64,000 bases of DNA, taken from assembly GCA_947623595.1 (NCBI GenBank), contig CANQHC010000006.1, forward strand, positions 1,005-65,004, read 5' to 3'. Positions 24,378 through 37,568 of this stretch are shown here, one piece after another. The translations under genes and the position numbers were made by a program. The stretch's first letter is position 1; each line of letters starts with the position of its first letter. The notes beneath the pieces were generated by a model, which saw only the letters and a list, made by a program, of their open reading frames with translations, was not told where the DNA came from and did no database searches. Source of the DNA: an uncultured Clostridia bacterium. Lineage in GTDB: Bacteria; Bacillota; Clostridia; TANB77; CAG-508.

Positions 24378-26276
24378 CTATTGATTTGTCATAAATGCAT
24401 CTACATTTGCTCTATATAAATCATATCTTTCCCTTGCTAAAGCATGTAAATATAAATTTCTAATAGCTTTTAGTCTTCTATCTTTATCTGATCCATTTGT
24501 TACATCTGCTACTTTTTCATCTTCCCATGTTATTTCATCCTTTCTCCATACTGAACCTTTAATAATTTGATCCGCTGGATACACAGATGCTGCATTAACC
24601 ATACAGTGATAACATGAAGTAATGTTCTTATTATTTCTTGTTTGTGGATAAAAATACCTATAATTTCCTTCTGAAACACGAACAGTTTGCCTTAAAAAGC
24701 TAATGTTAGAATATGCTTCTAATATATTTAGTTTCTTATTTTCCAATAATTCTGTACAACCTGGTAAATGATATTCTCTTTCTCCTGTATCTGCATTTTC
24801 TGTAATAATATAAATACATTCCTTATTTATATTTTCCTCATTAGAATTATTATTTATTACACAATAATTATTATAATATTTATGTCCAATTGGAATTCCT
24901 TGTAAAAAAGTAAGCATTGATATATTGTTAGTGATTTTATTCCAATCTTCCTCTGTTAACACAGGTAAAGCAAACTCATAATTTACACCTGTATAATCTT
25001 TAAATTCTGAAATAGCTGTTGTTAAATTTGTTTCGATAGACTTACGAATAACTGCTATACGATTTTCATCAAATGCTGATCCAAATAGTAATGGATCATT
25101 TGTATCTGATGGCACAAAAATATCTTCATCTTTTGTATCAGAATAATATTCTATTCTGTCACCATTTTGATTTATAACACAAAATTCTAAAGGATTTCCA
25201 TTTTCATCTATTGCATGACTCTGCTTTATGCCTTTTGTTAAGTCAGCTACTTGCTTACTAAATTTTGCAGCATTATTATAATATTCTAAGGCACTAGTAC
25301 TGTGCAAGTGCCCACCCCATGTTCTTTCCTGTAAATAATCATATATTTGTGTATTAGCGTAAGTATACTTTTTATTAGTAATATATGATTTTCCATAATT
25401 TTGATAAGTAAAATATGGTGATTGTCTAGTGTTACTTTCATTATAACTTGCCGCTTTTTCTTTATCATAATAAATTTTTTGTGCATTATATTCTACATAT
25501 TCATAATCATTTTGGTCATCTTCTAAGAAAGCTAAATGTTCAGTTAATACTTCAGGCTCAATCGTTTCACCATTATATGTTAGAGACCAACTTGATGGTG
25601 GACTTGATTCAAAATCACAATTAAAATGTACTGTGTTAAAATTGATCAAATACCCGGCTAAAGTTTTATAGCCATCACCATCTCCAAAGTCTCCGTATAA
25701 GGTAATTGCATTATCTAATGTATAATTAACTACAAAATCTTTATTTTCATTTTTATAACGACATGAGTAATAAATATATGGTTTTAATCCAAAATCAGTA
25801 GTTGCAATACCTATTCCATTTGTTTCATCTTCCTCTTCTTCTTCTTCTTCAGTTTCGATATCACTTCTTATATTTGGACTTCCATCTTTTATATCAGGTT
25901 TTCCATCTTTTACACTATAAACATTATCATATTTACTATAAATATAATATCCATCATATAATGTAAATACCACTGCTGGTGCATATGCCTGCAACTCTTC
26001 TACTGTTAATCTCTTACTATTACTCAAAGAATTATAAAAAGTCTTTACTGATGCTTCAATATCTCTAATTTTTGAATTGCTGACACTAGAATAACGGTTA
26101 TTTACAGTATTTAATTGGAATGCTTTTATAGCATCATAAGTAGCATCTATAAGTTTGGCGTCATAATCACTTTGCAATTCTATACTTTTCATTTGTGAAT
26201 CAATATAAGAAAACATTGTCATAGCAATTGGCAAAATAATAATGACAAAAATAACTGCAATATGTTGTATTTTCAT
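24378..26276 (-). CDS. Large N-terminally anchored protein of unknown function (last gene of the filament-like locus)
   Basis: 632 aa. N-terminal TM helix MKIQHIAVIFVIIILPIAMTMF, a poly-Glu tract (EEEEEEEDE), and C-terminal Cys motifs (..HLPGC.. ..SCYHC..). No family recognised. Confidence 0.6.
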   Translation of the reverse strand: MKIQHIAVIFVIIILPIAMTMFSYIDSQMKSIELQSDYDAKLIDATYDAIKAFQLNTVNNRYSSVSNSKIRDIEASVKTFYNSLSNSKRLTVEELQAYAPAVVFTLYDGYYIYSKYDNVYSVKDGKPDIKDGSPNIRSDIETEEEEEEEDETNGIGIATTDFGLKPYIYYSCRYKNENKDFVVNYTLDNAITLYGDFGDGDGYKTLAGYLINFNTVHFNCDFESSPPSSWSLTYNGETIEPEVLTEHLAFLEDDQNDYEYVEYNAQKIYYDKEKAASYNESNTRQSPYFTYQNYGKSYITNKKYTYANTQIYDYLQERTWGGHLHSTSALEYYNNAAKFSKQVADLTKGIKQSHAIDENGNPLEFCVINQNGDRIEYYSDTKDEDIFVPSDTNDPLLFGSAFDENRIAVIRKSIETNLTTAISEFKDYTGVNYEFALPVLTEEDWNKITNNISMLTFLQGIPIGHKYYNNYCVINNNSNEENINKECIYIITENADTGEREYHLPGCTELLENKKLNILEAYSNISFLRQTVRVSEGNYRYFYPQTRNNKNITSCYHCMVNAASVYPADQIIKGSVWRKDEITWEDEKVADVTNGSDKDRRLKAIRNLYLHALARERYDLYRANVDAFMTNQ

Positions 26277-26300
26277 ATTTTCTCCCTTTTTTATTCAATA

Positions 26301-26330
26301 AAATCAAAAAGGAAGTGGCTTTCCACTCCC
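26301..26330 (-). terminator. Possible intra-operon terminator/attenuator
   Basis: Minus strand reads GGAGTGG-AAAG-CCACTTCC followed by TTTTTGATTTT, 25 nt before the 24378-26276 start. Confidence 0.45.
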
Positions 26331-26397
26331 TATATTTTATGTTCAATAGGGATTTATTAAAAACCCCAAAAGCCTAAGCTTTTACTAAAAATTAATT

Positions 26398-35608: not shown

Positions 35609-36310
35609 TTAAACTCCTTTTTCTATTTGTTTAAATGCTTTTTTTATACTAGAATTTTGTTTTTCGTCATTAATTATATCTTCAGCCATATATATAAGAC
35701 TTTCTTTGTATAATTGTGTTAATTTTTTAAATTTAATTTTAGAAACTCTCTGATTTTCCATAATTACGGTTTCATCACCTTGTTCAAATGGAAAATAAAT
35801 TTTTTCTTCATTCCATATTGCCTTAATTCCTAATGAAATAAAATCAAAATATTCATCTTCTTCTTTTGTAATATCTTTAGAAAAGAAGACTTTTGTAAGT
35901 GGCATAGGTTCCGTAACTCCTGCTATAATCTCCAATCCTCTTTTTAAAGAATATATATCAAATCCTGTAACAAAATAATTCTTAGTTGCTGATTTTACGC
36001 CAAAGTCTTCTAAGGCTTCTGGAGAATCAATGTCTAAAAATATATAATCATAATCAAATGCTGCATGGTCAGGCATTCCCAAATATCTTTTTATGGAAAG
36101 ATAGTTGTAAAGTCCTACTGTAATATCAATTCCTTCAAATTCTGTGACATAGGACTTTGTTGGGAAAATAGTAGGTACTATATATTTTGATTTTTGTAAA
36201 GATGTTGTATCTATAACTAATACTCTGTTTCCCATAGTCTGAAAAATTTTAGCAATATATAGAATTAAATCAGTTTTATCGTATGCCCCTATAAATCCTA
36301 CTGTCTTCAT
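35609..36310 (-). CDS. TadZ/CpaE-like ParA/MinD-fold protein with degenerate P-loop
   Basis: MKTVGFIGAYDKTDLILYIAKIF..NRVLVIDTT.. ..YDYIFLDIDSP... Confidence 0.55.
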   Translation of the reverse strand: MKTVGFIGAYDKTDLILYIAKIFQTMGNRVLVIDTTSLQKSKYIVPTIFPTKSYVTEFEGIDITVGLYNYLSIKRYLGMPDHAAFDYDYIFLDIDSPEALEDFGVKSATKNYFVTGFDIYSLKRGLEIIAGVTEPMPLTKVFFSKDITKEEDEYFDFISLGIKAIWNEEKIYFPFEQGDETVIMENQRVSKIKFKKLTQLYKESLIYMAEDIINDEKQNSSIKKAFKQIEKGV

Positions 36311-36327
36311 CTTATACCTCCTAAATT

Positions 36328-37437
36328 TTATCCTCCTAATGATTCTAAATAAATCTGTCTTTCTTCTTGCATTTTATCAATTTCTTCTTGTACCTTATCA
36401 ACAGCATTATCTGCTGCATCTTCACTATTAGCATTTAATTCACTGTTAACTGGATTTCTTACTGCACCTTTAAGATCTGAATTATCATTTCTAGCAAAAA
36501 TTGCTTGTTTTGCAGTTTCAACACAGTTTGGATCTCTGTGAATTAAGTTTATAGTTTCATCATCTGGTAAATATGTTGGAATAGCTGCTTCTTGCATTCC
36601 TGGTTCAATATATTCTATTGCATATAAATAAGAACCTGGTATTTTGTATGACTCAATAATTGCACAGCTTAATGTTAAAATTTCTGTTTCTGATAAGTTT
36701 AATCTCATTGTATTTAATGATTCTACTCCATCTATTTCAGGGATTTCTATTTGCTTATGTGATGTTACGATTAAATCTTTTCCATTTGGTAATCTTAAAC
36801 GAACATCAATATATGTTTCACTTTCTAATTGAGTTGGTAAAAGAATCATATTATATTCTACTTTTCTGATATCATTTTGTGTCTTTTCATCACTTCTTGA
36901 AACAGCTGAGCTTGTTAATACAGTATTCTTGCTTAAAGCAATTTTAGCAACTATTGGTGATGTAACAAGTTCTACCTTTTCACCACTATCTTGATAATAA
37001 TAGTTTTCTCCATCTGGAGTATCTATTATTCTTTGTCTTGGATTTCCAGATGCATCAGTTACTATTTCTCCTGCTTCATTTAATTGAGGTAAACATAGTT
37101 GCCCATCTTCATTAGTAGTAACTGTATTTCCTCTAGAATCTTCTAACCTATATGTACTTATATTACCAACATCACTTCCGAAAGAGTTGCTTGGAAGTGT
37201 ATCTTTATTTATTTCAAGAACTGTTATCATATCATCTGTAATAACTTGACCTGATTTTATATCTTTATTTACTGCACATACTTTCACCCTAGCCTCTTGA
37301 AGTGCTGTAACCTCTTCCCTAGTATCTTTTAATTTTAAAAACAAAATTGCAATTATAGCTCCTGTAATTACTAAAGTTATCAACATTCCTAAAAGGAATG
37401 AAGTCTGTGCTTTTTTTTGCATTGGATTTTTTGCCAT
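36328..37437 (-). CDS. CpaB/RcpC-like protein (TM helix plus SAF-like domain)
   Basis: MAKNPMQKKAQTSFLLGMLITLVITGAIIAILF.. then ..VKVCAVNKDIKSGQVITDDMITVLEINKDTLPSNSF.., as in Flp-pilus CpaB. Start at the ATG at 37437, after AAGGAGG. Confidence 0.6.
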   Translation of the reverse strand: MAKNPMQKKAQTSFLLGMLITLVITGAIIAILFLKLKDTREEVTALQEARVKVCAVNKDIKSGQVITDDMITVLEINKDTLPSNSFGSDVGNISTYRLEDSRGNTVTTNEDGQLCLPQLNEAGEIVTDASGNPRQRIIDTPDGENYYYQDSGEKVELVTSPIVAKIALSKNTVLTSSAVSRSDEKTQNDIRKVEYNMILLPTQLESETYIDVRLRLPNGKDLIVTSHKQIEIPEIDGVESLNTMRLNLSETEILTLSCAIIESYKIPGSYLYAIEYIEPGMQEAAIPTYLPDDETINLIHRDPNCVETAKQAIFARNDNSDLKGAVRNPVNSELNANSEDAADNAVDKVQEEIDKMQEERQIYLESLGG

Positions 37438-37568
37438 TTCTATATTCCTCCTTATATTTTTACAAAATATCATCATTGAATTAATTGTACAACATTTTTC
37501 GTCTAAAAACAATATATTGTGTGTCTGTAACATAAACTTAACCTTATTGTAACATAATCGTAATATTG

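Follow-up and report, generated by a model that had tools for sequence, protein, structure and literature searches.

A Tad-like pilus gene cluster of TANB77 gut Clostridia with a probably frameshifted motor gene and orthologous modules on Bacillota plasmids

We analyzed a stretch of 64,000 nucleotides from an uncultured Clostridia bacterium of the TANB77/CAG-508 lineage (assembly GCA_947623595.1, contig CANQHC010000006.1; hereafter, the window). The window has a G+C content of ∼29% and carries on its minus strand, between positions 24378 and 37533, a tight run of open reading frames (ORFs) forming 12 genes (g01 to g12; Table 1). This locus is the TANB77 pilus gene cluster described by Kim et al. 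(Nat Commun 2024, PMC11680825), with 12 genes in the same order and of near-identical sizes. Its best explanation, to which we give a probability of about 0.7, is a conserved Tad-like (type IVc-like) pilus cluster. In the mechanism that we favor, the membrane-tethered CpaF-family ATPase g04 would drive a fused TadB/TadC-type platform, g05, while the CpaB-like g01 and the catalytically degenerate ParA/TadZ-like g02 and g03 would position or scaffold the machine, which would pull subunits with an N-terminal anchor out of the membrane and polymerize them into a surface filament. The major subunit would be g09, with g06, g07 and g10 as minor or priming subunits and g08, g11 and g12 as anchored accessory or tip proteins. 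The residues MENASKA preceding the hydrophobic helix are most likely an ultrashort, archaeal-type class III signal, which a prepilin peptidase from a gene elsewhere in the genome would remove by cleavage behind K-A. Since the operon would be transcribed from a housekeeping-type promoter, the filament would be an adhesin of vegetative cells rather than a spore structure.

Kim et al. report the 12-gene cluster from 122 of 129 TANB77 species and call it exclusive to TANB77 among gut genomes. Their proteins 927 to 938 measure 358, 231, 280, 640, 693, 165, 170, 143, 146, 237, 178 and 621 amino acids (aa), and g01 to g12 measure 369, 233, 280, 661 (repaired, see below), 695, 255, 201, 144, 155, 259, 197 and 632 aa. 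Using AlphaFold2 and Foldseek, the same article assigns homology to CpaB for protein 927, to TadZ for 928, to CpaE for 929, to TadA/CpaF with one transmembrane (TM) helix for 930, and to TadC and TadB for the first and second halves of 931, respectively. The N-terminal quarter of protein 938 is described there as TadE/PilV-like; proteins 932 to 937 showed no homology and were termed pilin-like by context and topology. Recombinant 938 is reported to activate dendritic cells via TLR4 and to improve anti-PD-1 responses in mice. The window copy thus shares with the cluster as published the TM helix of the ATPase, the fused platform of ∼693 aa, the seven anchored "pilin-like" proteins and the placement in a clade of low-GC, small-genome gut Clostridia, and differs from it by a frameshift in the ATPase gene.

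The initial annotation of the window had described thirteen genes of a Tad/type IV-filament kind that it could not match to any described locus. Its Tad/type IV reading is upheld by matches to CpaF, to CpaB and to the platform genes of plasmid pCLJ, as well as by the structural homology that Kim et al. report. Because the locus matches their cluster, with the same Tad-like reading, the finding is not new and the claim of novelty fails. The gene count also has to be corrected to 12, the apparent thirteenth ORF having arisen because the ATPase gene is split into two. What is new here are the observations on plasmid orthologues, the motor frameshift, the promoter, the g11-g12 hairpin and the MENASKA N-terminus. 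In its passages on the cluster, the published description does not discuss this N-terminus, the missing peptidase, the promoter type, orthologues outside gut TANB77 or plasmid homologues, and the terms "prepilin peptidase," "N-terminal" and "electron microscopy" are absent from its main text.

The motor gene g04 is split into ORFs at 33568-34740 (390 aa) and 32754-33587 (277 aa) by an extra base at 33600/33601, inside the Walker A motif (GEQGC|GKTT), as read from GGATGCCGGAAAAACC. Removal of one base from the site, GGA TGC CGG AAA AAC C, restores GEQGCGKTT and a single protein of 661 aa, and only after this 1-nucleotide repair does g04 match CpaF. The repaired protein matches Caulobacter CpaF structures (8rkd) with an E value of 6.4e-11 over residues 252 to 537 and scores 25.4 bits against Pfam T2SSE (cut-off, 24.9). 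Its best NCBIfam match, "TadA family conjugal transfer-associated ATPase" (E value, 2.5e-9), lies far below the cut-off for that family. The proposal of a CpaF/VirB11-like ATPase beginning with a TM helix was therefore correct, but it had overlooked the frameshift. GEQGCGKTT is invariant in the intact homologues (636 to 660 aa, 86 to 91% identity), and the site measures 31 nucleotides here versus 30 in every related locus where it could be located.

A contig of ENA assembly ERZ27249370 (L090), 100% identical to the window across 20 kb, carries the same 31-nucleotide allele, and the shortened 390-aa product is on record from 5 contigs, possibly not independent ones. From this we conclude that the frameshift is probably real for this strain. 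Its motor gene, with Walker A destroyed, would then probably be inactive, and the machine probably nonfunctional. An assembly or sequencing artefact, leaving the cluster fully functional in this organism, is unlikely but deserves serious weight: the other 11 genes are all intact, neither half of the ATPase gene contains another stop, and L090, the only contig with the same allele that was inspected, may represent the same data or the same strain. Besides the five recorded contigs, however, the position of the insertion (CC within TGCCGG) argues against an error, lying as it does outside the long homopolymers where errors are common. Programmed +1 frameshifting was rejected, as there is no slippery site and the allele is strain specific; a +1 shift restoring the frame would presumably need unfavorable re-pairing of tRNA-Cys on GCC. 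In a separate search of a phage collection, we obtained a single, distant match (27% identity, E value 1e-10), a CpaF-like ATPase core encoded by MT835594.1 (H71), which is a 26.6-kb "Bacteriophage sp." contig of human fecal origin and lacks annotation.

The remaining machine components were matched less strongly. The CpaB-like protein with a TM helix and SAF domain proposed for g01 was confirmed, with 23.5 bits against Pfam SAF (cut-off, 21) and an E value of 1e-4 over ∼200 columns when the family profile was compared with a small CpaB set by hhalign; the match to TIGR03177 CpaB (E value, 6.6e-5) remained below cut-off. These weak but consistent matches suggest that g01 is a CpaB/RcpC-type SAF protein. 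For the two proteins described as ParA-fold and TadZ-like, the degenerate P-loops in the 233- and 280-aa products stand, but support for the family is weak. The best PDB profile match of g02 was MinD, with an E value of only 0.65 and an alignment at Walker A and B, while g03 matched CapB, ParA and Get3 with E values of 0.006 to 0.3; against a TadZ set, hhalign gave E values of ∼0.1. A Thermobacillus orthologue of g03 is annotated as ParA. We tentatively treat both proteins as ParA-like.

The platform g05 has ∼7 TM segments by TM scan. After plasmid homologues had been joined to its alignment, its N-terminal half aligned end to end with gene B of pCLJ, the first gene after the ATPase (E value, 8e-5), and its C-terminal half with gene C, the second (E value, 2.2e-6). 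pCLJ is a Clostridium botulinum plasmid whose Tad-like locus encodes pilins with ordinary KKGG|LS leaders. The polytopic nature of this 695-aa protein and the correspondence of its halves to a TadB/TadC-like gene pair thus agree with the earlier proposal of a fusion, whereas T2SSF could not be shown by sequence. Pfam likewise found no T2SSF in pCLJ genes B and C or in five plasmid platform homologues, and no internal repeat was seen between the halves of g05. "Fused TadB/TadC" is therefore a putative designation, based on position, topology, the match to two pCLJ genes and the published structural homology. Across all cluster proteins, Pfam and NCBIfam returned only SAF, the weak CpaB match and, after repair, T2SSE, and the profiles of g01, g05, g09 and g12 retrieved nothing from the PDB sequences.

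As claimed initially, seven proteins (g06 to g12) each start with a single hydrophobic helix in the TM scan. Four of them (g06, g07, g09 and g10) are paralogues that have their first ∼55 residues in common and then diverge, with g06, g07 and g09 starting MENAS(K/R)(A/S)L and g10 starting MESAADAL; g08, g11 and g12 have a plain N-terminal anchor without the MENASKAL motif. The leader is indeed unusual, but the proposed subunit range of 155 to 632 aa missed g08, with 144 aa. The pilin-like genes have strong ribosome-binding sites and in-frame stops 1 to 6 codons upstream, which excludes a longer leader. A profile of g09 retrieved 4970 clusters at 50% identity (E value of ≤0.001). Among the 150 matches listed, all begin at protein residue 1, and 146 of these 150 cluster representatives (<50% identity) start exactly with MENASKAL. 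Since all eight codons of this motif vary synonymously, the constraint acts on the protein.

In class III signals, as defined in FlaFind, position −2 is charged, position −1 is Gly or Ala, and positions +1 to +4 are hydrophobic and lead into a TM helix. The arrangement K-A|L-I-I-A fits this pattern in all 150 representatives listed. By family, the pattern was found in 48 of 51 g09 sequences, 30 of 36 for g07 and 18 of 22 for g06, in only 2 of 27 for g10, and in none from the g08, g11 and g12 families. Of the seven anchored proteins, the structure of g09 was checked: the AlphaFold2 model (predicted local distance difference test [pLDDT] score, 76) has helices at residues 2 to 36 and 39 to 53 followed by four strands, a predicted fold with the general layout of a pilin. 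The g09 gene is duplicated in some related loci. The g11 proteins have a median identity of 56% to the window copy.

We surveyed the gene neighborhood in relatives, starting from a scan of species-representative genomes in which at least 438 genomes had an ATPase relative; the best 80 loci, together with two metagenome loci, make up the 82 related loci considered here. The best 80 all come from metagenome-assembled genomes of uncultured gut or rumen Clostridia, including Clostridium sp. CAG:780. The order from g01 to g12 is kept across the 82 loci, all from other genomes, and spoIVB is the next gene in 58 of them. One syntenic locus belongs to Ca. Scatovivens, and Scatovivens faecipullorum is classified as TANB77/CAG-508. 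Median identity to the window is 79% for the ATPase g04 and 66% for the platform g05 but only 34 to 38% for the pilin-like genes, a pattern that would suit surface-exposed subunits. Upstream of g01, a sigma-A-type promoter (TTGATT/TTGTTT-∼17 nucleotides-TAAAAT/TACAAT) is present in most of the regions listed (40 of the 49 extracted). Direct repeats resembling ATATTACAAA, or ATATTAC(A/G)AA, occur at ∼37515-37570 and in the upstream regions of many loci (L003-L077). Lying just upstream of the promoter, they may constitute a binding site for a regulator.

Orthologues also occur on plasmids. In a tblastn search of plasmids, g04 found copies 35 to 57% identical over 81 to 89% of its length on large Bacillota plasmids from Thermobacillus, Cohnella, Paenibacillus, Sporosarcina, Cytobacillus, Alkalihalophilus, Lysinibacillus, Clostridium argentinense, C. 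botulinum and Butyrivibrio. We inspected five modules, those of pTHECO01 (Thermobacillus), C. botulinum p12/29, pBsph (L. sphaericus C3-41), pCY360 (Butyrivibrio proteoclasticus) and pBpOF4-01 (A. pseudofirmus OF4). Orthologues of g01, g03, g04, g05, one g09-type pilin, g11 and g12 are present in all five and follow one another as in the window, and three modules also have a clear g02 orthologue. With hidden Markov models (HMMs) of the window families, the plasmid proteins scored 113 to 180 bits for g01, 73 to 143 for g02 (three matches), 37 to 203 for g03, 381 to 878 for g04, 228 to 642 for g05, 12 to 48 for g09, 54 to 103 for g11 and 4 to 118 for g12, the last being strong in three Bacilli plasmids and marginal in two clostridial ones. 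The g09 HMM was the top scorer for four of the five plasmid pilins. The platform of these modules measures ∼685 aa, and a g08-like protein was also seen. The modules differ from the TANB77 cluster in having one pilin gene rather than four and a g12 half as long (320 to 344 aa), in which the N-terminal region is kept. Three of the five additionally have a gene of 468 to 546 aa upstream of the SAF gene, whose product was MinD/TadZ-like in the one copy tested. The plasmid pilins start MSTNASKAL, MGENARKAL, MESPVVKAI, MDDNATKGL and MDSVTKAI; all are short, and in each the helix is preceded by Lys and then Ala or Gly.

Downstream of the module, the three Bacilli plasmids (pTHECO01, pBsph and pBpOF4-01) have SLH and DUF5704 genes, and two of these plasmids a GGDEF gene thereafter; the C. 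botulinum module has the GGDEF gene only, and pCY360 has no SLH, DUF5704 or GGDEF gene. Annotations of the modules name only a SAF protein, an ATPase and hypothetical proteins, and our literature search yielded no description of them. Tad-like loci of a more ordinary kind, whose Flp-like pilins have leaders, are present on pCLJ, on pNPD7 and on a plasmid of Streptomyces sp. NBC_01431. The Streptomyces locus adjoins a replication-relaxation gene and encodes an ATPase of the NCBIfam "TadA family conjugal transfer-associated ATPase" kind.

These contexts bear on what the apparatus does. The proximity to spoIVB had been pointed out initially, and together with the spoIIID, sipL, yunB and yabG-like genes neighboring one related locus (L001), its conservation might speak for a role in sporulation, as a spore appendage or as a channel between mother cell and forespore. 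The adjacency is real, but a sigma-A-type promoter (TTGxTT-17-TAxAAT) rather than a sigma-E, -F, -G or -K promoter, along with plasmid orthologues lacking any sporulation context, indicates no link to sporulation. With the housekeeping genes truA and cdaA on the opposite side of the cluster, we regard this role as highly improbable. A SpoIIIA-like sporulation channel was rejected because of the wrong ATPase family and the wrong promoter type. A second possibility is that the apparatus is not primarily an adhesive pilus but a contact or mating-pair device of conjugative plasmids, or a Tad-derived secretion device, that was domesticated onto the TANB77 chromosome. In its favor are the complete orthologous modules on large Bacillota plasmids and the conjugal transfer family that the ATPase matched best, below threshold, in NCBIfam. 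On pCY360, only a cold-shock gene and ∼0.7 kb separate the module from VirD4, PrgI and VirB4 genes downstream of it, and on pTHECO01 a relaxase gene is found ∼5 kb upstream of the module and a coupling protein gene at a distance of ∼8 kb. Moreover, the TANB77 ATPase is closer to the Paenibacillaceae plasmid copies (51 to 57%) than to the clostridial plasmid copies (35 to 41%). However, only these two of the five inspected modules are associated with conjugation genes, MOB-suite calls most carrier plasmids nonmobilizable, and the TANB77 cluster is chromosomal and vertically conserved beside spoIVB, and its vicinity lacks genes for a relaxase, a coupling protein and VirB4. A contact role linked to conjugation is thus plausible for the plasmid copies and not indicated for the chromosomal TANB77 copy, for which this origin and function as a whole appear quite unlikely.

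A further alternative concerns the processing of the subunits. As noted from the outset, the cluster lacks a Flp pilin: no Flp-sized ORF was found when the intergenic gaps were searched on the operon strand for ORFs of at least 20 aa, and the candidate subunits of 144 to 259 aa gave E values of 0.006 to 0.5 against a Flp set by hhalign. The reported absence of an A24 peptidase was likewise borne out for the 64-kb window within the reach of a TM scan of ORFs of at least 100 aa, of Pfam checks on two small polytopic candidates and of precomputed Pfam results for the DUF2651 and CdaA genes (from L090), with the SecY-like, FtsK-like and other ORFs not scanned. The subunits might then be leaderless, with MENASKA kept, polymerization independent of a peptidase, and an acidic residue at position 2 or 3 taking the role of the classical Glu5. 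The upstream stops and strong ribosome-binding sites, the near-invariant start conserved at the amino acid level, the acidic residue at position 2 or 3 in four of the five plasmid pilins, and the lack of an A24 peptidase also in the shown flanks of related loci and in the five plasmid modules would all agree with such subunits. On the other hand, K-[AG]|[LI] has the appearance of a site for class III cleavage, Gly occupies position −1 in one plasmid pilin (MDDNATKG|L), the Thermobacillus pilin has no acidic residue, and genes for prepilin peptidases often lie at a distance from pilus loci (PMC6668835). The window itself encodes, at 61454-62617 on the plus strand, a protein of 387 aa whose N-terminus, MMMKNLKRNVDG|ITLIALVITIIVLLILAG (KRNVDG|ITLIALV), is of the classical prepilin type, although the match to Pfam N_methyl reached only an E value of 0.048; this suggests that a prepilin peptidase is present somewhere in the genome. 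The gene is an isolated one, and its neighbors at 62953-63562 are fragments that resemble a group II intron maturase and an IS110-type transposase. We consider leaderless subunits rather improbable, yet the model stays alive because the supposed leader is so oddly near-invariant. Doubtful, too, is a broader version in which the locus represents a distinct, Bacillota-wide branch of type IV filaments that keep the seven-residue N-terminus, need no peptidase, arose in association with plasmid conjugation and later became fixed in a reduced-genome gut chromosome.

Several results weigh against the Tad-like pilus that we favor. Leaders are normally variable, so that the near-invariance of MENASKA would be easier to understand if this N-terminus were kept than if it were removed. 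Most bacterial prepilin peptidases act poorly on substrates with Ala at −1, and neither the window nor the inspected plasmid modules revealed such an enzyme. The g09 model had no match in the PDB by Foldseek (best E value, 0.76), so that the structural check yielded the expected layout of a helix and four strands but no fold match, and the g09 profile found nothing significant among Flp or TadE sets; more generally, hhalign comparisons of the g06 to g12 families with small Flp, TadE, TadG and pCLJ minor-pilin sets were not significant. For g05, there was no match to Pfam (T2SSF), NCBIfam or PDB profiles, the AlphaFold2 model (pLDDT, 60) had no fold match, and hhalign of its N-terminal half against a four-sequence TadB/TadC profile gave only an E value of 0.0026. 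Finally, a filament has never been observed for the clade; TANB77 is uncultured, and the main text of PMC11680825 contains no microscopy.

Among other known systems, the cluster shares with canonical Tad/Flp loci, such as Caulobacter Cpa, Aggregatibacter Tad and a Rhizobium plasmid locus, a CpaF-family motor and a CpaB-like SAF protein and, more tentatively, ParA/TadZ-like proteins and a platform encoded right behind the ATPase, ahead of small proteins with a hydrophobic N-terminus. In contrast to these loci, it has neither a Flp pilin of 50 to 80 aa (G|xxxxEY) nor TadV, its platform is one fused protein in which the T2SSF sequence signature is undetectable, its ATPase has an N-terminal extension of ∼250 aa with a TM anchor, and its subunits have 140 to 260 aa and a 7-aa N-terminal segment. 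It also lacks a secretin, as expected for a monoderm. The short leaders with Lys at −2 and Ala or Gly at −1, the lack of a Glu5 requirement, and subunits of 130 to 250 aa with an N-terminal helix and a β-rich head are shared with archaeal type IV pili (Epd/Aap type, class III), from which the cluster differs by its bacterial host, its invariant leader sequence and the lack of a PibD/FlaK-type peptidase nearby; no sequence or fold match to archaeal pilins was obtained. For the plasmid copies only, the type IVb pili of IncI plasmids (R64 and TP114) offer an analogy as plasmid-encoded type IV filaments beside a type IV secretion system. Those pili, however, belong to another class of type IV pili, with PilS/PilV pilins, a PilQ ATPase and Gram-negative hosts.

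Table 1. Genes and local signals of the TANB77 pilus gene cluster in the window
Feature	Position	Strand	Description
g01	36328..37437	-	CpaB-like, N-terminal TM helix and SAF domain, 369 aa
g02	35609..36310	-	ParA/MinD-like (tentative), 233 aa, degenerate P-loop GAYDKTD
g03	34762..35604	-	ParA-like (tentative), 280 aa, Walker A lysine lost
g04	32754..34740	-	CpaF/TadA-family ATPase, N-terminal TM helix, frameshifted; 661 aa when repaired
g05	30562..32649	-	Polytopic, 695 aa, putative fused TadB/TadC-type platform
g06	29776..30543	-	Pilin-like paralogue, 255 aa, N-terminus MENASRAL
g07	28952..29557	-	Pilin-like paralogue, 201 aa, N-terminus MENASRSL
g08	28429..28863	-	N-terminally anchored, 144 aa, N-terminus MKKTLII; called from identical contig L090 and family consensus
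g09	27847..28314	-	Candidate major pilin, 155 aa, N-terminus MENASKAL
g10	27014..27793	-	Pilin-like paralogue, 259 aa, N-terminus MESAADAL (family MENAxEAL)
g11	26398..26991	-	Anchored, 197 aa, conserved motif FPLM..(S/E)R.DD
g12	24378..26276	-	Anchored, 632 aa, homologue of "pilin 938"
Sigma-A-type promoter	37484..37512	-	TTGTTT-17-TACAAT, upstream of g01
Terminator-like hairpin	26310..26331	-	Inside cluster, between g11 and g12
Hairpin and T-run	~37569..37597	-	Ends the upstream DUF2651 gene; read by eye

The ORF of g01 is open to 37533, but the ATG at 37437, which has a ribosome-binding site, is the likely start; the consensus start of the family is MAxNPMQ. The claim that the operon lies between two terminators holds for the upstream hairpin, but none was detected 3′ of g12. 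Within the operon, the best promoter-like match of the region (11/12, extended TG) lies at 28880-28909 on the minus strand, inside the end of g07 and just upstream of g08. Together with the hairpin between g11 and g12, it suggests that g08 to g11, including the candidate major pilin, may form a separate expression unit. At the 3′ end of g12, a 33-nucleotide tandem duplication (24346-24411, minus strand) repeats the terminal 10 codons and stop (ANVDAFMTNQ*) as an immediate near-copy reading ANVDAVITND*. The gene immediately upstream of the operon, likewise on the minus strand (37618-38061), encodes a DUF2651 protein of 147 aa with three TM segments and no A24 signature, which is a neighbor in only 9 of the 82 related loci.

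The cluster is the feature proposed in PMC11680825 to explain why TANB77 abundance predicts the response to immune-checkpoint therapy. If the motor-null allele is real, some strains may hold pilin genes without a working motor, separating gene abundance from pilus display. Whereas TANB77 itself is unworkable, the culturable plasmid hosts Lysinibacillus, Paenibacillus, Alkalihalophilus and Butyrivibrio offer an experimental route. The residual value of the locus thus lies in the N-terminus of its subunits, the culturable hosts of its plasmid-borne relatives and the motor-null allele.

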